This document shows positions 3,603-32,000 of a stretch of 32,000 nt of DNA, one piece after another; position 1 is the first letter of the stretch; each line of letters starts with the position of its first letter. A program made the translations under genes and the position numbers. This stretch comes from Bellilinea caldifistulae (GTDB taxonomy: Bacteria; Chloroflexota; Anaerolineae; Anaerolineales; Anaerolineaceae), in assembly GCF_001306055.1 (NCBI RefSeq), contig NZ_LGHJ01000012.1, positions 120,001 through 152,000 on the forward strand, in the 5' to 3' direction. A model generated the notes under the pieces. It saw only the letters and a program-made list of their open reading frames with translations. It searched no databases and had not been told where the DNA came from.

Positions 3603-6380
3603 CTACTCCTCCTCTTGCGGGTTTGCCGAAAAAGCGCGCCGGATCAGCCATTGTTGATTGTAGAGATGCAGGGCATTCGAGCCTTCTGCCGGGCTGGCGC
3701 TGCGCGGCCGGCTGATGACCTGCACCGGCGCACCCCAAACTTTCTCGATGTACGGACGCACAAACTCCCATGCCCCCATATTTTGGGGTTCTTCCTGCAC
3801 CCAGCGGACTTCTTTGAGATTGGGAAAGCCATCTAACACAGCGGCGAGCTCTTCGAGGGGGAATGGCGCCAGTTGTTCCAGGCGGACAATGGCGGTTTGG
3901 GGGTTCTGGCGACGCACCTCACTGACGGTCAAGTCCACCGCCACCTTACCACTGCACAACAGCGCCCGCTCGACCTCTTCCGGCGGGGTGTTATCGGTCA
4001 GCACCGGCAGAAAGCCGCCGCGCGTAAAATCCACTCCCGCCGAAGCCACCAGCGGATGGCGTAGCAGGCTTTTGGGGGTCATCACCACCAGCGGTAGGGG
4101 ATGTTTCTGAATCAACAGGGCCTGCCGGCGCAGCAGGTGAAAGTACTGAGCGGCGGTGGTGCAGTTGACCACTTGCAGATTCTCATCCGCATACAGGTTG
4201 AGGATGCGCTCCAGACGCCCACTGGAATGATCCGGCCCCTGGCCCTCAAAGCCGTGCGGCAGCAGCAGCACCAGCCCCGGGGTCAGCAGCCACTTGGCGC
4301 GGGCGGTTGTGATGAACTCATCCACCATCACCTGAGCGCCGTTGATGAAATCACCGTATTGGGCTTCCCAAATCACCAGCCGGTCGGGTGACTGAATGCT
4401 GTAGCCGTATTCAAAGCCCAGCGCAGCCAGCTCCGAAAGCGGGCTGTTGTAAATTTCAAAGGCAGCCCTTGCCTGCGGCAAGCGCTGTAATGGAATGAAC
4501 TTTTCGCCGGTTTGGTAATCAAACAGGGCGGCATGGCGTTGACTGAACGTACCCCGCAGGACATCCTGTCCAGTCATACGGATGGGAATACCCTCCTCCA
4601 GTATCGAAGCAAACGCCAGTTCTTCCGCCTGCGCCCACTCAATTGCAGGCCAGTGGATGTCCTCCATCCATCGGGTGCGCCGCTCGCGCGCCTTGGTCAA
4701 CTTGGGGTGCAGGTGAAAATTCTCCGGCAATTGCTGCAAAGCCCGGCTGAGGGTCTGCAATCGTTCAAGAGGAATGCCGGTTTCAATGTCTTTCAGGGAA
4801 AATCGGCCGGGTTTGGGAGATTCGGCCTCCGTTTGAAGGACGGCGTTGGCATCCAGGCTGTTTAGGATGTTTTGCAGGCGCTGCTCACAGTCAAGGATGA
4901 TCTGCTCTTCCTGGGCGGGGGTCAATTCGGCTCGCTCCATTAATTGCTGCGCCCACTGACGGCGTACGGTGGGGTGCTGCTCAATTTTTGCGTACAGGCG
5001 CGGCTGGGTGAATGAGGGTTCATCCCCCTCGTTGTGTCCGTGGCGGCGGTAGCCGATCAGGTCAATCACAAAATCGCGATGAAACTGCTGGCGGTAAGCC
5101 CATCCCAGGCGAATCGCCAATAAACAAGCCAACGGGTCATCGGCGTTGACATGCACAATCGGCACGCGAAAGCCCTTTGCCAGATCACTGGCAAAGATGG
5201 TGCTGCGCCCGTCCTTGGGGTCGGTTGTGAAACCCAACTGATTGTTGGTGATGATATGAATCGTACCGCCGGTATGATAACCTTCCAATTTGTACAGGTT
5301 GAAGGTTTCGGCGACCACCCCCTGACCGGGAAAGGCTGCATCCCCATGAATGAGCACCGGCAGAGCCGCCAGCGGGTCGAAACGGGGGGAACCGGGTTGG
5401 CAGGTCTGGCTGCCGGCTGCCCGCGCCATTCCCTCAACCACCGGGTTGACCGCTTCCAGATGACTGGGGTTGGGCACCAGGGTGATCTCGATACAGGCCG
5501 CACATTCATCCTCGGCGGCTTGCCGACCGCCCAGATGGTATTTGACATCCCCGCTGAACCCCAGCGCATCATCATTGCGCAGTCGGCGCTCCAGCGGGTC
5601 TTTGAACTCCGCCAGAATCGTTTCGTACGGCATACCCAACACATGCGCCAGCACATTCAAGCGCCCGCGATGTGCCATGCCCATCAGCACGTGCCGGACT
5701 CCGCCCTCCCCAGCCAGTCGGATGAGCTCATCCAGCATCGGCACCAGCATATCCACCCCTTCAATCGAAAAACGGGTTTTACCCGGGAAAGTGCGTTGCA
5801 GAAAACGCTCAAAAACTTCCACCTCGGTCAGGCGTTCCAGCAAAGCCAAACGCTCTTGCGGGGTTAAATCCGGCTGGTAGAGTTCCTCCTCAACGGCCTG
5901 TCGCAACCAGTGGCGTTCCTCCGGCACACGAATTTGCAGATAATCATGGCCGATCCTGCCGCTGTATAGCGATCGCAGCCGTTGAACGGCATCCAGCGCC
6001 GTCGAACTGCGCCGGGCAGCCGCTCCACCCACCAGGCGTGCCGGCAGAGCAGCCAGTTCTTCCTTGCTCAGGCCGTAGGTAGATTCCTCCAGCCACGGGT
6101 CACCCGGTGGCGGGGAACCGAGCGGATCCAGATGGGCATCAAAATGCCCGTACTGACGGATTGCCTCAGCCAGACGGCTGACCGCCACGGCCTTTTCGGG
6201 TGGGATACCGTCCTGGCTAAGCTCGGGGCGAAGGGTCTCACTTTTTTTCTCGAAAACGGGAGGAAATCGGTCAAAGAAAATTCGCAATGCCGTATCTACG
6301 GCGTTCGGATCCTCACAGTATTTTTCATATAAATCCAGCAAATAGGCTTGATTGAAGCCGTTGAACTCATCCCACTCCAT
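3603..6380 (-). CDS. sucA: 2-oxoglutarate dehydrogenase E1 component
   Basis: The 925-aa length fits. A ThDP-binding region (IHGDAAFPGQGVVAETFNL) is present and the protein is SucA-like throughout. A GGGAGAGGG RBS precedes the ATG at 6380, and E2 follows immediately. Confidence 0.92.
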   Translation of the reverse strand: MEWDEFNGFNQAYLLDLYEKYCEDPNAVDTALRIFFDRFPPVFEKKSETLRPELSQDGIPPEKAVAVSRLAEAIRQYGHFDAHLDPLGSPPPGDPWLEESTYGLSKEELAALPARLVGGAAARRSSTALDAVQRLRSLYSGRIGHDYLQIRVPEERHWLRQAVEEELYQPDLTPQERLALLERLTEVEVFERFLQRTFPGKTRFSIEGVDMLVPMLDELIRLAGEGGVRHVLMGMAHRGRLNVLAHVLGMPYETILAEFKDPLERRLRNDDALGFSGDVKYHLGGRQAAEDECAACIEITLVPNPSHLEAVNPVVEGMARAAGSQTCQPGSPRFDPLAALPVLIHGDAAFPGQGVVAETFNLYKLEGYHTGGTIHIITNNQLGFTTDPKDGRSTIFASDLAKGFRVPIVHVNADDPLACLLAIRLGWAYRQQFHRDFVIDLIGYRRHGHNEGDEPSFTQPRLYAKIEQHPTVRRQWAQQLMERAELTPAQEEQIILDCEQRLQNILNSLDANAVLQTEAESPKPGRFSLKDIETGIPLERLQTLSRALQQLPENFHLHPKLTKARERRTRWMEDIHWPAIEWAQAEELAFASILEEGIPIRMTGQDVLRGTFSQRHAALFDYQTGEKFIPLQRLPQARAAFEIYNSPLSELAALGFEYGYSIQSPDRLVIWEAQYGDFINGAQVMVDEFITTARAKWLLTPGLVLLLPHGFEGQGPDHSSGRLERILNLYADENLQVVNCTTAAQYFHLLRRQALLIQKHPLPLVVMTPKSLLRHPLVASAGVDFTRGGFLPVLTDNTPPEEVERALLCSGKVAVDLTVSEVRRQNPQTAIVRLEQLAPFPLEELAAVLDGFPNLKEVRWVQEEPQNMGAWEFVRPYIEKVWGAPVQVISRPRSASPAEGSNALHLYNQQWLIRRAFSANPQEEE

Positions 6381-26177: not shown

Positions 26178-26181
26178 AAGA

Positions 26182-27129
26182 CTAATTCTTTTCGTGGTAT
26201 TTTTTGGGAACGAAATCCAACACGATTTTTTCAAGATCGCCTAAATTGCTCAGGTTCAGGAAGAAATGACAGTTTTCCCAAAGGCGATAAAGGTCTCGTC
26301 TTCTGGCCAGCCAGCCACCACCATCGGCAAAATTAACGAAAATTCGCTTTTCATTATAACGGCTATTACTATGACGAATGCGGTCATAAATTGCGAGCAT
26401 GTCCCGCGCCTTATTGGTTTGACCACTGCTTGTGGTTTCCTGGAAAGAGCTCATAATAATCACCCATGGGTCATCCAGGCTCGGCACTGCAAAATCTATG
26501 TCGGTTTCCACGAAACGTGATCGTCCTTGTTCAAACGGTATGCCATACTGGCTTTCAACTTTCCGCAAAACATTTTCTATTTCTGCTTCGACGTGATGTC
26601 CTTTTTTCGCGCCATAAGTCCCGATTAATGAGCGCTTGTAACGTACTTTGCGAGCCGCCTGTGTACTGGCACCAATTTCAGCGTAATTCAAACTTTCCAG
26701 ATAATATCGGGGAATAAAGGCAGTCAGTTCCCCATCATTGCAACCGTTAAAAAGTAAAGAAACGATTTGACTCAGAAAATTCGGATCTTGTGAAATCCTG
26801 CTCTTGATCCTGACAAGCGACCATTCTGCATCAAAACCGCCCTCAATTCTTCCTATGCGCCTCAAGAGAGAAATAATTCTCAAGAATTTTTCTTCGGAAA
26901 GCTCCAAATCCCTGAGAATAACATCCAAAACTGCGGGGTTTTGAACAATTTTCTTCCGCAAATCTTCTTCTCTAATCGGATGAACACCGGAAAGCTGCGC
27001 CTGGGCTGCCAGTTCCAGCAAATTGTCAACCTCTCGATCAATTTCATCCTCCAAAGAAGGATTTAGATAAAAAACGCTTGCGCTCTTCCAGACTTGCTCA
27101 AAGGATATTTTTTCAATGCTTCTGGTCAT
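26182..27129 (-). CDS. Putative restriction endonuclease partner (315 aa, helical N-half plus nuclease-like C-half); family unassigned
   Basis: The ATG at 27129 (MTRSIEKISF...) overlaps the methyltransferase 3' end by 17 nt. The C-half has elements typical of type II REase cores. These are YGAKKGHHVEAEIENVL, TDIDFAVP, VIIMSSFQETTSSGQTNKARD and FVNFADGGGW. From memory it resembles the DpnII/MboI-type layout, which I could not verify. Confidence 0.5.
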   Translation of the reverse strand: MTRSIEKISFEQVWKSASVFYLNPSLEDEIDREVDNLLELAAQAQLSGVHPIREEDLRKKIVQNPAVLDVILRDLELSEEKFLRIISLLRRIGRIEGGFDAEWSLVRIKSRISQDPNFLSQIVSLLFNGCNDGELTAFIPRYYLESLNYAEIGASTQAARKVRYKRSLIGTYGAKKGHHVEAEIENVLRKVESQYGIPFEQGRSRFVETDIDFAVPSLDDPWVIIMSSFQETTSSGQTNKARDMLAIYDRIRHSNSRYNEKRIFVNFADGGGWLARRRDLYRLWENCHFFLNLSNLGDLEKIVLDFVPKKYHEKN

Positions 27130-28792
27130 CGGCAATCTCCAATTTTGCGGCCTTGATCGCTTTCCCCCATGTCGGGAACACATCCAGATAAACTTTCAAA
27201 TCATATTGGCTGTAGGTTTCCACATCTTGCGGTGTGGGAAGTCTTCCTAGTTTTCTGGCCAACGAACGCAATTCCAGCTGGAGCTCTTTCTTTGTCAATT
27301 CCGTTTTTGAACGCCGGATAGAAGGACGAAGCACTTCCCCATTTTGCTGAACTTCTTGAATTTTTTTCTGCATCAATTCAACATAAAAGGGATCAATGTC
27401 AATTCCGACGAAACGACGGTTTAATTTTGCCGCCGTGATGATTGTGGTTCCAGTGCCGGCTAGCGCATCGAGAACGACATCATTTGGATTCGTTGTGAGT
27501 AATATGATTCGTTTGAGCAACGCTTCCGGCAATTGACAGGGATGCCAGTCACGATCACGCCGATGCTTAATCCGATGGATATCCCACCATATATCCGAAA
27601 GCATTTCCTGCTGGTTTTCACCCCTTAACTTCCGATTGCGAATACAGGAAGCCCGTAAACAATAGACACGGCTTTCAATATTCTTGATTGCTTCATAGTT
27701 AAACGTAAAACCTTCTTTTTGTTTGGTGTAAAAAAGCAGGCTGTAATGAGCAGGCATTAATTTTCCACGCGGCTCAGAAAGTGCATCCCAAACAATCCAG
27801 TTTTGAAAGTACAATCGCTGGTTCAGGTAATCAGCATGATACATGGACCAACGCGGGAGGTTCAGAACAAACAAAGAACCGGTAGGTTTCAAGACCCGGA
27901 TATATTCTGCCAGCCACTGATTACACCATTCCAGATATTCTTTACCAGCCAGTTCATCATTATACACATTGTAAGATTTGTCTAGATTATAGGGAGGATC
28001 AGCAAAGACCAAATCAATTGAATCGTTCGGATATTTCTTAAGAATCTCTAACGCATCTCCCTGTAATACCACATTAAAGCCGGGGATTGTCTCATCCAGA
28101 CGATCAGTGTTTGAAGCAGTTTTTTGCGGTTCAATCACCGAAAACAAGCCTGGTTGATATTGAATTCTATTTTCCCCAATCTGCTTCACTGTTGAGTTTG
28201 TGTGTAATGCCCCCGCCGGGCCAGCCCAGCCGACAATTTCCTTACCATTGACATCTACCAAACTCAATATCCGCTGAAAGGATGCTTCGCTCAAAGAAGT
28301 ATAGTTATCTTCTGTATCTAACGATTTCCAAACATCCGAAATGGCTGCCCCAGCCGGATTCATCAAGTGGGCTTTCCCTCCCCAGTCCTTCACTGTTTTA
28401 CCGCAGGCTTTGCAAAACTCATGGGGAGTTCTTATTTTGTTAATTTCAAAATGATGACCTTTTACAAACATCAATAAACCGGCGTGGACAGATGGTAGTC
28501 CATTGGTAAATTGTCTTACCCTGGACTCAAGAGCAATCCAGTACTTAAAGTTCAAGCGCTGATCGAGATACACCCCAAGCGAGGGCAAATTAAACGGCAA
28601 ACCCTGGACGAACAATATTCCACCAGGTTTCAAGGCACGCACCAGATTATCCAAAATATTATAAATGGACCGACGGGTCTCTTGACCAAGCCCGCCCGAA
28701 ATCAGTAAGGCAAAATCCAATGATTTGGATTCAAGCTTTTTAGCATTATCTACTATAAATGGTTCATCTGGTGTAATTAGATGTTTGATCAT
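27113..28792 (-). CDS. DNA methyltransferase, beta-class (DPPY, probably N6-adenine), with an N-terminal degenerate duplicate domain and a C-terminal accessory repeat
   Basis: Motif IV, FADPPYNL (aa 263-270), was confirmed on the DNA: GATCCTCCCTAT at 28000-27989. Motif I, LDALAGTGTT (aa 441-450), lies downstream of it, which is the beta order. Residues 24-196 repeat the same fold with the motifs lost. Confidence 0.85.
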   Translation of the reverse strand: MIKHLITPDEPFIVDNAKKLESKSLDFALLISGGLGQETRRSIYNILDNLVRALKPGGILFVQGLPFNLPSLGVYLDQRLNFKYWIALESRVRQFTNGLPSVHAGLLMFVKGHHFEINKIRTPHEFCKACGKTVKDWGGKAHLMNPAGAAISDVWKSLDTEDNYTSLSEASFQRILSLVDVNGKEIVGWAGPAGALHTNSTVKQIGENRIQYQPGLFSVIEPQKTASNTDRLDETIPGFNVVLQGDALEILKKYPNDSIDLVFADPPYNLDKSYNVYNDELAGKEYLEWCNQWLAEYIRVLKPTGSLFVLNLPRWSMYHADYLNQRLYFQNWIVWDALSEPRGKLMPAHYSLLFYTKQKEGFTFNYEAIKNIESRVYCLRASCIRNRKLRGENQQEMLSDIWWDIHRIKHRRDRDWHPCQLPEALLKRIILLTTNPNDVVLDALAGTGTTIITAAKLNRRFVGIDIDPFYVELMQKKIQEVQQNGEVLRPSIRRSKTELTKKELQLELRSLARKLGRLPTPQDVETYSQYDLKVYLDVFPTWGKAIKAAKLEIADDQKH

Positions 28793-28804
28793 CTTGAGAA
28801 TCAG

Positions 28805-29872
28805 TTACTCATCCCATTTCATTTGTTCCATAAAATTCGCCGGCAGGCTGGCGATGAATTGTGCCAGCAAGTGACCGGTACGCTGCACATCTTTCATGGA
28901 GATGATTTCCACCGGTGTATGCATGTAACGCAAGGGTATGCTCAGGACCGCCGTTGAGATGCCCTCCCCGATGATTTGCATGGCGTAGGCATCTGTGCCG
29001 GAGCGAGCCGGTAAAATTTCATTGTGGAAGGGGATGTCCAAGCGCTCCGCCGTCTCTTTGAGGGCACGGTAAAACGCCGGATGAATATTTGCCCCCCACC
29101 CAATCGTCAGCCCCTTGCCCAACGGGAAGGTGCGGTAATCCGAAGGTCCTCCCGGCCCTTTTGCAAAAGTTACATCCACTGCCACCGCCAGATCCGGGCG
29201 GATCGAAAACGGCGAGGTGTACCCGCCGCCCAGGGTAATTTCTTCCTGCACGGTGGCTACAGCCCACACATCCCACACATGATGTACCGGCTGCAACGCC
29301 CTGAGGCAAACAGTCAGGGCTGCAATTGAGGCGCGGTTATCCAGACTGTGACCAGCCAACAGGTCATTGCTCAATTCCAGCGGAGGCTGGGCAAACGAAA
29401 TCAGATCACCAACCCGCACCAGTTCCCGAACCTGCTCCGGCAGCAGGCCGGTATCCACCAGCAGGTATTTCAGGTCCACCGATTGCCGCGGCGAAACTTC
29501 GTCCGGCAGCAGGTGGGCTGGCGGCTGCACCACAACGGCTGGCAAGTCCTCTCGCCCATGCACAATCACCTGCTGACCGGGCAAAATGCGCGGGTCAATT
29601 CCGCCGATCGGGGTAAAACGCAGCCAGCCGTCCACAATTTCCGTCACCATCATTCCAATGGCGTCCATGTGGGCGGCCAGCAAAATGCTGGGGCGCGGTT
29701 CTTCACCACTGCCGCGTTTGAGGGCGTGCAGGCTGCCCAGCGGACTGAACGATATTTCATCCACCAGCGGCTGCCATTCCTGTTGAATCCGCTCGCCCAC
29801 CGGGCTTTCATAACCGGAAAGCCCCGGCAGAGAAATCAGATCTTTGAGAAAATCCTTGATTTCACTCATCAT
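28805..29872 (-). CDS. M42-family aminopeptidase, paralog 1
   Basis: LISLPGLSGYESPVGERI and LAAHMDAIGM are present, and the C-terminal PLRYMHTP matches PCRYIHTP and PVRYAHTP in the other copies. Confidence 0.85.
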   Translation of the reverse strand: MMSEIKDFLKDLISLPGLSGYESPVGERIQQEWQPLVDEISFSPLGSLHALKRGSGEEPRPSILLAAHMDAIGMMVTEIVDGWLRFTPIGGIDPRILPGQQVIVHGREDLPAVVVQPPAHLLPDEVSPRQSVDLKYLLVDTGLLPEQVRELVRVGDLISFAQPPLELSNDLLAGHSLDNRASIAALTVCLRALQPVHHVWDVWAVATVQEEITLGGGYTSPFSIRPDLAVAVDVTFAKGPGGPSDYRTFPLGKGLTIGWGANIHPAFYRALKETAERLDIPFHNEILPARSGTDAYAMQIIGEGISTAVLSIPLRYMHTPVEIISMKDVQRTGHLLAQFIASLPANFMEQMKWDE

Positions 29873-29893
29873 TTTTGAATGGTTCCCTTGAGG

Positions 29894-30307
29894 TTATGGA
29901 GAAGTTGGAGTATCGGTGGGGGTCGGCGTAGCCACCACCGGCGTATCGGTTGGCAGAAGGGGGGGTTCGGTCAGGGTCAGGGTCACGGTCAGCGTCGGCG
30001 TTTCGGTGAGAGTCGGAGTACGGGTCGGCGGCACAAATGGCGTAAACGTCTGGGTTGGCGTCCACGTTTGGGTTGGGGTCGGCGTAAATGTGTCGCTCGG
30101 CAGGATGAAAAATGTGGGGGTCAGGGTGGGAGGTTGGGGCGGTTCAGCCGTATTGGTAAGCGTGACCGTCGGGGTTGGCGTTGGCTCAGGCACATTCCCG
30201 TTGAGCTGCAGAATAAAAAACCCCAAGCAATAGCAGGGTATGGTTGCCAGTATGATAAAAACCAGAATGGATCGGATCCGAGTGCGGCGTTCGGCGCGAA
30301 AGGCCAT
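29894..30307 (-). CDS. Small N-terminally anchored Thr/Pro-repeat protein
   Basis: Begins MAFRAERRTRIRSILVFIILATIPCYCLGFFIL (a TM). About 95 residues of TPT/TLT repeats follow. The stop lies 21 nt before the next M42 gene. Confidence 0.55.
   Translation of the reverse strand: MAFRAERRTRIRSILVFIILATIPCYCLGFFILQLNGNVPEPTPTPTVTLTNTAEPPQPPTLTPTFFILPSDTFTPTPTQTWTPTQTFTPFVPPTRTPTLTETPTLTVTLTLTEPPLLPTDTPVVATPTPTDTPTSP
29900..30200. repeat. Imperfect codon-level low-complexity tract (Thr/Pro/Leu codons)
   Basis: Contains GGTCAGGGTCAGGGTCACGGTCAGCGTCGGCGT-type reiterations. It is the DNA image of the TPT/TLT repeats. Confidence 0.5.
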
Positions 30308-30378
30308 CCAGAAGTTCTCCCAGTACTCCTCGATAATATCACGGCCTTATGGATGTGGCAAGTCGAGTAACGGACAAG

Positions 30379-31206
30379 TCAGCGGCGTTCATCCGGCATG
30401 GGATTCAACTGGGTCGTTTGCATCTCCTTGCGGACGGTTTGGTAAAGGTTCTCGGCTTTCAACTCCCCAATCGTGTAGCAGGGTGCTTGCAGTTGATCGG
30501 CCAGGGCCTGCGCCAGTCCCTGATCAAACGCCACATGCTCCATGTTGATGACCACACTGTGGATGTGTTCCTCGGCAATCTGCCGGGCAATTCGATAGGC
30601 TTCTTCATGGGGCGGAAGCTTGCCCATTGAAACATTCCCGGCGCCATCGGTGAGGACGATCAGCAGCGGCATCACATCGGGATGCAGCATCCGTTCGCGC
30701 ATCAGCACATCGTAAGCCAGTTTCAGGCCGGCCGAAAGCGGCGTCTTGCCTCCTACCGGAATATCGGCAAGTGCCCGCTGTGCCAGCGTAACCGAATTGG
30801 TGGGTGGCAGAACCAGCGTGGCGCGGTCTTTCTGGAAAACGATCAACCCGACCCGATCACGACGCTGGTAAGCATCCGTCAAGAGGGAAAGGATGGCTCC
30901 CTTGGTCGCCTGCATCCGCTCCGCCACCGCCATAGACCACGAGGCATCCACCAGAAAGAGGATTAAGTTTGCCGCCCGGCGCACCCGCACTTTGCGCATG
31001 TAATCGCTGGGGCGCACCGAAAAAGCCACTCTCTGCCGGTCTTCCTCACGTTCCCGCTGATGGGGAGCAGCCGCCCGTAAAGTAGCATCAAAAGCCAGAT
31101 CATCAGCCTTGCCATAAGAAGGCCGCGATTGGATATAACGGCCGCGTTTTCTTTCGGTGCGGGTACGTGACCGACGCCCGGCAAAACGACGCACCATTTT
31201 ATCCAA
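30379..31206 (-). CDS. VWA-domain protein (ChlD/BchD C-terminal-like)
   Basis: The MIDAS motif is LFLVDASWSM (DxSxS). RGRYIQSRP...FDATLRAAAP and VGGKTPLSAGL fit the chelatase D-subunit VWA pattern. The track start at 31206 is a TTG and an ATG lies at 31197. The frame stays open upstream to 31392. Confidence 0.8.
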   Translation of the reverse strand: MDKMVRRFAGRRSRTRTERKRGRYIQSRPSYGKADDLAFDATLRAAAPHQREREEDRQRVAFSVRPSDYMRKVRVRRAANLILFLVDASWSMAVAERMQATKGAILSLLTDAYQRRDRVGLIVFQKDRATLVLPPTNSVTLAQRALADIPVGGKTPLSAGLKLAYDVLMRERMLHPDVMPLLIVLTDGAGNVSMGKLPPHEEAYRIARQIAEEHIHSVVINMEHVAFDQGLAQALADQLQAPCYTIGELKAENLYQTVRKEMQTTQLNPMPDERR

Positions 31207-31361
31207 GGGTGTGTCCAGCCGGCGCGGGTCGAAAGACTGACCGATTTTTACCCGCTCACCGCCATCCCACCATTGAGCGTTCTGTTTTCCAAAAATTTCT
31301 TCCGTCTGTCCGGGTTGAGGAGTTCCCTGAGGGAGCGTTTCCGGACTTTCCGCTCCCTCGT

Positions 31362-32000
31362 TCAGACTTTTTTTTGCTGATTCTTCTCTTCCTCAACCCT
31401 TTCAACTTCTTCGCGCCGCTGACCGGTAGAACTGGCTCCCTGTAATTGCTCAATCCGGTCTTGCAGTTCTTCCATAGTCACTTCTTCCTGAGAGAAAGGC
31501 CCGCGGCGCAGACGGTGCGGAAGCGCCAGTTCTGCTGCCAGCGCAATATCCCGCCCGTTGATTGCCGTGCGCCCATCGAAGGCGGCCTGCGCCCGGGCGG
31601 CTTTGAGAATGACCAGATCGGCGCGGTGTCCGTCCACATTCAAAGAAGCGGTCAATTGAGCAATTGAAAGCAGATCGCGACTGGTATAACCAACCTGATC
31701 AATCAACCGGCGAGCGCGTTCAATCTGGCGGGAGAGTTCTTCCTCTTTTGGCAGCCACTGCTGACGGAATTTTTCGGGATCGGCTTCAAAAGCCAGATTG
31801 CGTTCCATGATCTGCACCCGTTCGCGCGCATCCCGGATACCGTATATCTCTACGGAAAGGGCAAACCGATCCAGCAGTTGCGGGCGTAAATCACCCTCTT
31901 CGGGGTTCATCGTCCCCACCAGAATAAAGCGGGCCGGATGGCTGAACGAGATGCCTTCGCGCTCTATGATGTTCATCCCCATGGCAGCCGAGTCGAGCAG
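31362..32000 (-). CDS. ChlI/BchI-family AAA+ ATPase; N-terminus lies beyond the window edge
   Basis: NIIEREGISFSHPARFILVGTMNPEEGDLRPQLLDRF is the hallmark ChlI/BchI segment. The frame is open to position 32000. The acidic tail ends in the A8 run. Confidence 0.85.
   Translation of the reverse strand: MLDSAAMGMNIIEREGISFSHPARFILVGTMNPEEGDLRPQLLDRFALSVEIYGIRDARERVQIMERNLAFEADPEKFRQQWLPKEEELSRQIERARRLIDQVGYTSRDLLSIAQLTASLNVDGHRADLVILKAARAQAAFDGRTAINGRDIALAAELALPHRLRRGPFSQEEVTMEELQDRIEQLQGASSTGQRREEVERVEEEKNQQKKV

Follow-up and report, generated by a model that had tools for sequence, protein, structure and literature searches.

The window analysed here, a 32,000-nucleotide stretch of the Bellilinea caldifistulae genome (Anaerolineae, Chloroflexota), encodes on its minus strand a 559-amino acid (aa) DNA methyltransferase in which two homologous class-beta methyltransferase folds follow one another in a single chain. 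The N-terminal fold carries none of the catalytic and cofactor-binding motifs, all of which reside in the C-terminal fold. We consider it fairly probable that this protein functions as a single-chain hetero-pseudo-dimer: the live domain would catalyse, and the dead copy would stand in for the second subunit with its interface and with a target recognition domain (TRD) acting in trans. The protein is a 100% match to a B. caldifistulae entry named only "DNA modification methylase." The span 27395-28723, for which a dead copy fused to a live beta-class domain was originally predicted, corresponds exactly to residues 24-466 of the open reading frame (ORF). The gene and its parts are laid out as follows (AdoMet, S-adenosylmethionine):

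27113-28792, minus strand: methyltransferase gene, a 559-aa ORF consisting of the dead beta-class copy, a disordered linker, the live beta-class domain and a helical tail
28199-28792, minus strand: N-terminal dead copy of the methyltransferase fold (aa 1-198), truncated past the beta-1-equivalent strand
28685-28723, minus strand: motif IV-equivalent of the dead copy (aa 24-36, SLDFALLISGGLG), with SGGL where DPPY is expected
28463-28633, minus strand: conserved core of the dead copy (aa 54-110; strand, helix, strand, loop, strand)
28298-28462, minus strand: TRD-like segment of the dead copy (aa 111-165)
28199-28240, minus strand: motif I-equivalent of the dead copy (aa 185-198, EIVGWAGPAGALHT), without FxGxG; the fold ends here
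28088-28198, minus strand: disordered inter-domain linker (aa 199-235), of variable length
27338-28087, minus strand: live class-beta amino-methyltransferase domain (aa 236-485)
27989-28000, minus strand: catalytic motif IV, DPPY (aa 265-268), by direct reading
27443-27481, minus strand: motif I/AdoMet loop (aa 438-450, DVVLDALAGTGTT), by direct reading
27137-27295, minus strand: C-terminal four-helix module (aa 500-552), Pfam HNH_repeat (homing-endonuclease-associated repeat)

Two class-beta folds in one polypeptide

The internal homology is real and far beyond chance. A BLASTP comparison of residues 1-230 with residues 231-559 produced a single alignment of 197 columns with 26% identity (E 2e-8); the Smith-Waterman score was 99, compared to 30.9 +/- 4.5 (maximum 51) for 2000 shuffles of the N-terminal half (z=15); and hhalign comparison of the family profiles of residues 1-200 and 234-490, both built from an alignment of 40 full-length homologues, yielded a probability of 98.6% (E 5e-15). 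Each half also matched the Pfam family N6_N4_Mtase (PF01555, cut-off 26.7 bits) independently, the C-terminal half with an E-value of 4e-50 (171-195 bits) and the N-terminal half, when submitted alone, over aa 36-158 with an E-value of 4e-6, at 27.4 bits just above the cut-off. The methyltransferase models of Pfam matched by the two halves were N6_N4_Mtase and generic ones, with no MT-A70 among them. Among the solved structures in PDB, the profile of the N-half region matched M.MboIIA (E 2e-5). The presence of two homologous beta-class folds in one chain, as claimed in the original prediction, is thus borne out, and all six aligned blocks cited in its favor were reproduced.

Structure prediction with AlphaFold2 leads to the same assignment. 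The model of the whole chain, built from the 40-homologue alignment, has a mean predicted local distance difference test (pLDDT) score of 79 and a predicted template modelling (pTM) score of 0.77; even though 76 residues fall below a pLDDT of 50, the latter value suggests that the pair of domains is placed with confidence. Across most of the N-terminal domain, pLDDT is about 90. The strands (2-6, 25-31, 54-64, 81-93, 101-110, 152-155 and 186-191) and helices (10-19, 43-53, 69-77 and 169-179) of the N-terminal half parallel those of the C-terminal half one-for-one up to the strand preceding motif I (439-443). In a Foldseek search of PDB with a model of residues 1-200 alone (pLDDT 82), the best matches were all class-beta amino-methyltransferases, namely, M.BceJIV (E 1.4e-8, TMq 0.62) followed by M.MboIIA, CcrM and M.RsrI, with MTA1 and METTL3-14 chains lower down; an unrelated fold for this half is not what the model indicates.

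The register of the first aligned block was disputed by BLAST only, which placed LITPDEPF (aa 5-12) against LVFADPPY, suggesting a half-preserved motif IV. We rejected this register because the profile alignment and the AlphaFold strands set aa 24-31 opposite the DPPY strand and because the DEPF residues are not conserved in the family. The register given originally, in which SLDFALLISGGLG is paired with SIDLVFADPPYNL, is backed by the profile alignment and by the predicted strands (25-31 opposite 259-264).

The two folds are joined by a linker of which residues 199-233 have pLDDT <50. In the 40-homologue alignment, the linker contains zero invariant columns, and its length differs by tens of residues across the family. 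In one orthologous gene (locus L082:1077-2748, identical in L083), there is a frameshift inside this linker, which divides the gene into one ORF for the dead half and an overlapping one for the live half, with an in-frame ATG shortly before the live domain begins; sequencing error, a pseudogene and ongoing natural fission are all possible explanations.

An N-terminal copy without catalytic and cofactor motifs

The window protein has a single DPPY (265-268) and a single motif I loop, DALAGTGTT (442-450), both of them in the C-terminal half. At the corresponding places, the N-terminal half contains ISGGLG (motif IV) and GWAGPAGAL (motif I), and neither the pattern (D/N/S)PP(Y/F/W) nor FxGxG is found anywhere in this half. 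The originally reported replacements of DPPY by SGGL and of the AdoMet loop by GPAGAL are confirmed in register by both hhalign and the AlphaFold strands. Strand 186-191 of the N-terminal half is equivalent to strand 439-443 of the live domain (beta-1) and is followed by disorder, and the elements with which residues ~449-485 complete the AdoMet site in the live domain (a helix, strand beta-2 and motifs II-III) have no N-terminal equivalent. Hence a correction to the description of this half as a copy of the fold: it is homologous but not a full copy, ending after the beta-1-equivalent strand.

The same asymmetry characterizes the whole family. In 40 of the 40 aligned homologues, DPPY and the D-x-x-x-G-x-G-T-T loop are present once per protein, in the C-terminal half, and a single DPPY and a single motif I per protein were found also in 32 distant two-domain cluster representatives and nine genome-derived members (see below). 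Across the 32 distant representatives, the motif IV and motif I equivalents of the dead copy are hypervariable. The claim that the N-terminal copy is dead therefore holds: all catalytic and AdoMet motifs, as well as the motif II-III part, are missing in the 40 homologues and the 32 distant representatives. Judging from these sequences, the N-terminal domain is predicted neither to bind AdoMet canonically nor to catalyse.

The live domain, on the other hand, shows the class-beta motif order (IV...TRD...X-I-II-III), with DPPY at 265-268 followed by HPCQLP at 417-422 and DALAGTGTT at 442-450. Its closest solved relatives by sequence are M.MboIIA (3e-29), M.BceJIV (1e-26), CcrM (3e-24) and RsrI (9e-23); by Foldseek, these are M.BceJIV (2.8e-17, TMt 0.72) and M.MboIIA (4.7e-17), then CcrM, RsrI and PvuII. 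Both DPPY and, in the motif I region, D438, D442, G446, G448, T449 and T450 are invariant among the 40 homologues. Because motif IV is DPPY, the enzyme probably methylates adenine at N6. The C-terminal module (Pfam PF18780, E 3e-10; helices 501-515, 521-527, 532-538 and 542-556 in the AlphaFold2 model), in which 32% of the columns are invariant, is presumed to be an accessory DNA-binding module; it is missing from the live subunits of the split systems described below.

Conservation of the dead copy and its correspondence to M.BceJIV

Conservation was scored on the 40 full-length homologues, which are 54-82% identical overall. The 33 invariant columns of the N-terminal half are unevenly distributed: there are none in aa 1-53, a region that includes the motif IV equivalent, 32 in aa 54-153 and one thereafter, P192, which is the sole invariant residue of the motif I-equivalent segment (aa 185-198). 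The invariant residues in aa 54-110 are L54, G58, F61, Q63, P66, L69, L76, F82, K83, Y84, W85, S90, P100 and H103. The best conserved stretch of this half is aa 111-165, where 18 of the 55 columns (33%) are invariant, versus 13% in aa 1-110; it carries the signature R-x-P-H-x2-C-x2-C-x5-D-W-G-G-K-x-H-L-M-x-P-x-G-x3-S-D-V-W, which was detected in 30 of the 32 distant representatives and in all genome-derived members. This pattern indicates that the dead copy is kept by selection.

The closest solved structure, M.BceJIV, offers a guide to what these segments might do. In the M.BceJIV dimer, helix alphaC, strands beta4-beta6 and loop-45 make up the interface, and the TRD comprises residues 167-194; where one monomer methylates an adenine, it is the TRD of its partner that inserts into the major groove of that DNA (PMC11380664). 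In our alignments, residues 54-110 and 152-155 of the N-terminal half correspond to alphaC, beta4, loop-45, beta5 and beta6 of M.BceJIV, and in the alignment of hidden Markov models of the N-half profile and M.BceJIV, the CxxC...DWGGKxH segment falls on the TRD, at the positions of the base-contacting residues Arg180, Leu182, Phe183 and Trp188. Because the invariant segments coincide with the interface and the TRD of M.BceJIV, the dead copy appears to have kept both; as far as can be told from sequence comparison, it retains what a partner subunit needs, with the catalytic pocket and the cofactor site lost.

Both TRD regions of the window protein additionally contain an invariant cysteine pair, CxxC in the dead copy (C127 and C130; 28403-28414) and Cx4C in the live domain (C378 and C383; 27644-27661), with conserved histidines nearby (H124/H142 and H406/H410, respectively). 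In each TRD, the cysteines might form a disulfide or belong to a structural metal site. In the sequence alignments, this feature is absent from the solved beta-class relatives matched here.

Fused forms in several phyla and split relatives

The N-terminal half was searched against 1.84 billion representatives, and 32 two-domain representatives of 50%-identity clusters were taken from the results. The two-domain architecture is represented by at least about 30 clusters at 50% identity, from several phyla, and the nine genome-derived members come from metagenome-assembled genomes (MAGs) labelled Chloroflexota, Verrucomicrobiota, Planctomycetota, Blastocatellia (Acidobacteriota), Clostridia and Bacteroidetes. 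No relative of the N-terminal half was found in the phage collection, and there is no NCBIfam model for this half or for the endonuclease encoded next to the window gene. In annotation pipelines, such proteins are called simply "DNA methyltransferase", and the dead subunit genes go unnoticed.

The hits also include 220-340-aa proteins that contain the dead domain only, four of which were looked up on their contigs (loci L081, L084/L085, L086 and L087/L088, that is, four independent contig sets). In each of the four, directly downstream of the dead-subunit gene, there is a gene for a 257-277-aa N6_N4_Mtase protein with DPPY and D-x-F-x-G-x-G-T, 45-58% identical to the C-terminal domain of the window protein. 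The dead and live genes overlap by 17-41 nucleotides in three of the four sets (a 12-nucleotide gap separates them in the remaining one) and, because of this overlap, are probably translationally coupled in those three. Like the N-terminal half of the window protein, the split dead subunits end just past the beta-1-equivalent strand and keep CxxC...(W/Y)GGKK. One of these (P0147) carries an XRE-type helix-turn-helix (HTH) domain at its N-terminus, and the three others have an N-terminal extension of ~100 aa. The decay of motif IV can be followed in these sequences, with MPPF, LPPF, TPPF and CPPF in split dead subunits, APPF in one fused protein (L007) and no trace left in the clade of the window protein. 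The occurrence of the same two modules in fused and split forms is a classic sign of physical partners.

Many N-domain-only proteins of 150-290 aa were not counted as stand-alone dead subunits: most end at would-be contig cuts, and in several the sequence runs on into the start of the live domain. The two records L082 and L083 were likewise discarded as a split gene pair, being identical in sequence and representing the frameshifted orthologue of the fused gene mentioned above; as a case of splitting, this locus would carry little weight.

At L086:6739-8637, the split pair is immediately followed by a gene for a 632-aa protein of the gamma-class, type IIG-like kind (N6_Mtase/Eco57I/TaqI_C domains), so that two different methyltransferase systems are clustered at this locus. 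Two distant two-domain members, L008:7269-9137 and L009:7839-9806 (from MAGs labelled Clostridia and Blastocatellia), share a housekeeping neighbourhood, with the gene order folP-like gene, 314-aa gene, methyltransferase, ~400-aa gene, and no endonuclease; these may be solitary methyltransferases with a regulatory role.

Active single-domain relatives exist as well. One, encoded by Klebsiella michiganensis plasmid NZ_CP058124.1 (L089), has DPPF and a TRD of the form CxxC...YGGYK...DVW. Because active single-domain relatives share the CxxC...GGxK TRD signature with the dead copy, the latter descends from a lineage of DNA-reading enzymes, and the L089 enzyme is a culturable handle on the ancestral TRD type. 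The plasmid is a 5.5-kb, ColE1-type replicon with features at 25-906 and 3909-5162; its methyltransferase has an N-terminal extension, and it also encodes a 293-aa protein with a weak match to the BamHI/BglII endonucleases.

The putative restriction-modification cassette

The methyltransferase gene of the window is accompanied by a second gene, with which it forms an island of low GC content:

26182-27129, minus strand: putative partner restriction endonuclease gene (315 aa), the start of which overlaps the methyltransferase stop by 17 nucleotides
26178-28804, no strand: low-GC island holding both genes (GC 0.433, versus 0.585 and 0.572 in the flanks)

The partner ORF is named "DpnII restriction endonuclease" at NCBI. 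Its match to Pfam DpnII is borderline and covers only the C-terminal ~110 aa (22.7 bits, with a cut-off of 23; 25-30 bits for homologues), and the score for Pfam RE_BanI is similar, again borderline and confined to the C-terminal third; a sequence search of the solved structures in PDB revealed no relative. Homologues of the endonuclease are found on the same contigs as the methyltransferase homologues, at parallel levels of identity and with matching neighbouring locus tags, and the two genes are adjacent in L001, L004, L006, L010 and L082. From this gene association, the methyltransferase is predicted to act as the modification component in a type II restriction-modification cassette of two genes.

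The island (2.6 kb, with a GC content of 43% versus 58% in its surroundings) sits between two M42-peptidase-like genes that share its strand; the spacers measure only 12 nucleotides upstream and 4 nucleotides downstream. Given the common strand and the shortness of these spacers, the cassette probably rides on the transcript of the host operon. The peptidase-methyltransferase-endonuclease order of the window is seen also in L082.

An attempt to derive the target site from word avoidance led to no conclusion: the observed/expected ratio for GATC is 0.67 in the window (29 kb of host DNA), within the range of 0.43-1.03 in the related loci. A word strongly avoided in the host DNA of the window (1-26000 and 29001-32000) is AGCT, with 22 occurrences seen versus 106 expected (ratio 0.21); the ratio for GGCC is also low, at 0.54. 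The strong avoidance of AGCT is confined to the window and is not seen in the related loci, and the scarcity of these two words hints at other restriction systems, with AluI- and HaeIII-like sites, in the genome.

How the two domains might work together

The most plausible scenario is that the dead copy replaces the second subunit that class-beta enzymes need. It would pack on the live domain via the usual interface (helix alphaC and strands beta4-beta6), and its TRD (CxxC...DWGGKxH...SDVW) would be lent in trans to read the major groove of the site; the target base would then flip into the pocket of the live domain, which would bind AdoMet and contribute its own loops and catalysis, and the C-terminal HNH-repeat helical module would add DNA affinity. 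The relatives with two adjacent genes for the dead and the live subunit would build the same machine from separate parts, the window protein being the fused form. Physical packing of the two domains is suggested by the pTM, the conservation pattern and the split gene pairs. We infer the reading of DNA in trans by the dead copy, as well as what can be said of the methylated base and the target site.

Part of this scenario was anticipated in the original prediction, which had the dead copy turned into a DNA-recognition scaffold. This is plausible in view of the alignment of aa 111-165, with its 33% invariant columns, to the trans-reading TRD of M.BceJIV. The further suggestion that the arrangement could allow an asymmetric or unusually long recognition site finds no support: homodimeric beta enzymes already serve palindromes (CcrM, M.BceJIV) as well as asymmetric sites (M.EcoP15I), and the partner endonuclease weakly resembles the DpnII/BanI-type enzymes of short palindromic sites.

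Several observations weigh against the single-chain pseudo-dimer with recognition in trans. The geometry proposed for it rests on the pTM and on analogy. The solved beta-class dimers (M.EcoP15I, CcrM and M.BceJIV) divide labour differently, and the window protein need not follow the mode of M.BceJIV. Model confidence is lowest in the TRD loop of the dead copy (aa 138-152). The TRD of the live domain is itself conserved (22% invariant), such that the dead copy may not be the main or only reader of the site. Finally, no endonuclease is recognisable beside the genes of the more distant two-domain members, which may be solitary, so the family is not strictly linked to restriction-modification.

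The conserved TRD of the live domain also fits the strongest of the alternatives, under which the dead copy does no more than assist the live domain as a structural chaperone or scaffold (in folding, stability or allosteric activation), makes no sequence-specific contact with DNA and leaves specificity to the live domain and perhaps the helical module. DNMT3L and Trm112 are precedents of the scaffold type. Help with folding is known also for the N-terminal domain of RsmC (PMC1934991), and conservation of the interface-equivalent core (aa 54-110) would be expected of a scaffold, too. However, invariance within the dead copy peaks not in the interface but in the TRD-equivalent loop, which the dead copy has in common with active relatives, and the retention of a TRD-like segment across phyla is unexpected for a mere scaffold; we therefore regard this alternative as unlikely.

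A regulatory dead copy, one that binds the promoter or operator DNA of the cassette, or the endonuclease, and so times restriction versus modification, seems less likely still. N-terminal HTH regions of methyltransferases, such as those of M.SsoII and M.EcoRII, act as autoregulators, and such a role would account for the XRE-type HTH of P0147 and possibly for the N-terminal extensions of the other three split dead subunits; moreover, the cassette includes no separate gene for a controller (C) protein. Nevertheless, the dead copy of the window protein lacks an HTH, the cassette lies inside a host operon with 4-12-nucleotide spacers and no obvious promoter region of its own, and distant members that lack the endonuclease retain the dead copy. 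A regulatory role is compatible with recognition in trans by a pseudo-dimer.

The idea that the N-terminal half is a functionless relic, a second methyltransferase that decayed after fusion and is drifting, can draw on its faster evolution (47% mean identity to distant members, versus 68% for the C-terminal half) and on the hypervariable motif IV and motif I regions, but is hardly credible given the 33 invariant columns among 40 homologues, the presence of this half in about 30 clusters from several phyla, its confident predicted fold and the persistence of the dead subunit as a gene of its own in the split systems, overlapping its live partner in three of four, where a useless gene would be lost.

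Relationship to known methyltransferases

The homodimeric class-beta enzymes (M.BceJIV, CcrM, M.MboIIA, M.RsrI and M1.HpyAVI, as well as M.EcoP15I with its Mod2) have the same fold and motif order as the live domain and, likewise, two copies of the fold between which recognition and catalysis are divided (PMC7544214; PMC11380664). Their two chains are identical and active, whereas the window protein is one chain in which the copies are 26% identical and one is dead and truncated, such that the roles would be hard-wired, with one catalytic pocket per molecule.

A 2020 review argues that the class-beta motif order imposes dimerisation with a "division of labor" and lists heterodimers with an eroded motif IV, METTL14 and MTA9 (PMC7544214). 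METTL3-METTL14 and the ciliate MTA1-MTA9 (AMT1-AMT7) similarly combine an active class-beta subunit with a homologous inactive one (in METTL14, motif IV reads EPPL; PMC7544214), and the comparison with METTL3-METTL14 drawn originally is apt, both because of this proposal and because split dead-plus-live gene pairs exist; these pairs are the direct bacterial analogue of METTL3-METTL14 and MTA1-MTA9. The likeness is one of principle, not of family. The eukaryotic proteins belong to the MT-A70 family and are separate polypeptides with extra RNA- or DNA-binding partners, whereas the window protein is a bacterial N6_N4_Mtase, fused and part of a predicted restriction-modification cassette; furthermore, its dead copy, unlike METTL14, has lost motif IV completely and motifs I-III, too.

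Two methyltransferase domains in one polypeptide are found also in the fused type IIS methyltransferases of the M.FokI type, in which each domain is an active enzyme for one strand of an asymmetric site; in the window protein, only one domain has the catalytic and cofactor motifs. The tandem homologous domains of RsmC (and RlmG), with substrate binding and folding help in one and catalysis in the other, are a further parallel (PMC1934991). RsmC, however, modifies guanine N2 of rRNA, has the ordinary I-to-IV motif order and no link to restriction-modification; its duplication is independent of that in the window protein. In the 2020 review, "tandem" and "fusion" refer only to an ancestral duplication of the SAM-binding part, to the gain of TRDs and to the tandem zinc fingers of MettL3 (PMC7544214), and the open-access papers and preprints searched contained no description of a beta-class DNA methyltransferase fused to, or arranged in tandem with, an inactive copy.

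More broadly, and with slightly less than even confidence, we suggest that these proteins represent a widespread, undescribed bacterial class of obligate hetero-(pseudo)dimeric class-beta DNA methyltransferases, in split and fused forms, in which a dead paralogue reads the major groove in trans. If this is the case, they would be what METTL3-METTL14 and MTA1-MTA9 correspond to in prokaryotes and might serve as an evolutionary model of these pairs, the specificity of such restriction-modification systems could evolve in a module free of catalytic constraints, and the paired cysteines of both TRDs may also mark a metal site. The active/inactive pairing of the eukaryotic m6A writers would have a bacterial parallel within restriction-modification systems, and predictions of specificity from the catalytic domain alone could be wrong for this family. 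Structural studies over the past decade gave rise to the proposal that class-beta amino-methyltransferases have to dimerise, with recognition and catalysis divided between subunits. In homodimers, this division is hard to dissect, as any mutation hits both roles; a natural single chain with a permanently dead copy separates the roles genetically, and with split relatives available too, the dimerisation proposal becomes directly testable.

Other genes in the window

Outside the cassette, two minus-strand ORFs of the window have recognisable sequence features: the ORF at 29894-30307 contains long Thr-Pro repeats (TPTPTPT...), and the one at 30379-31206 contains a D-x-S-x-S motif (LVDASWS) of the von Willebrand A domain kind.

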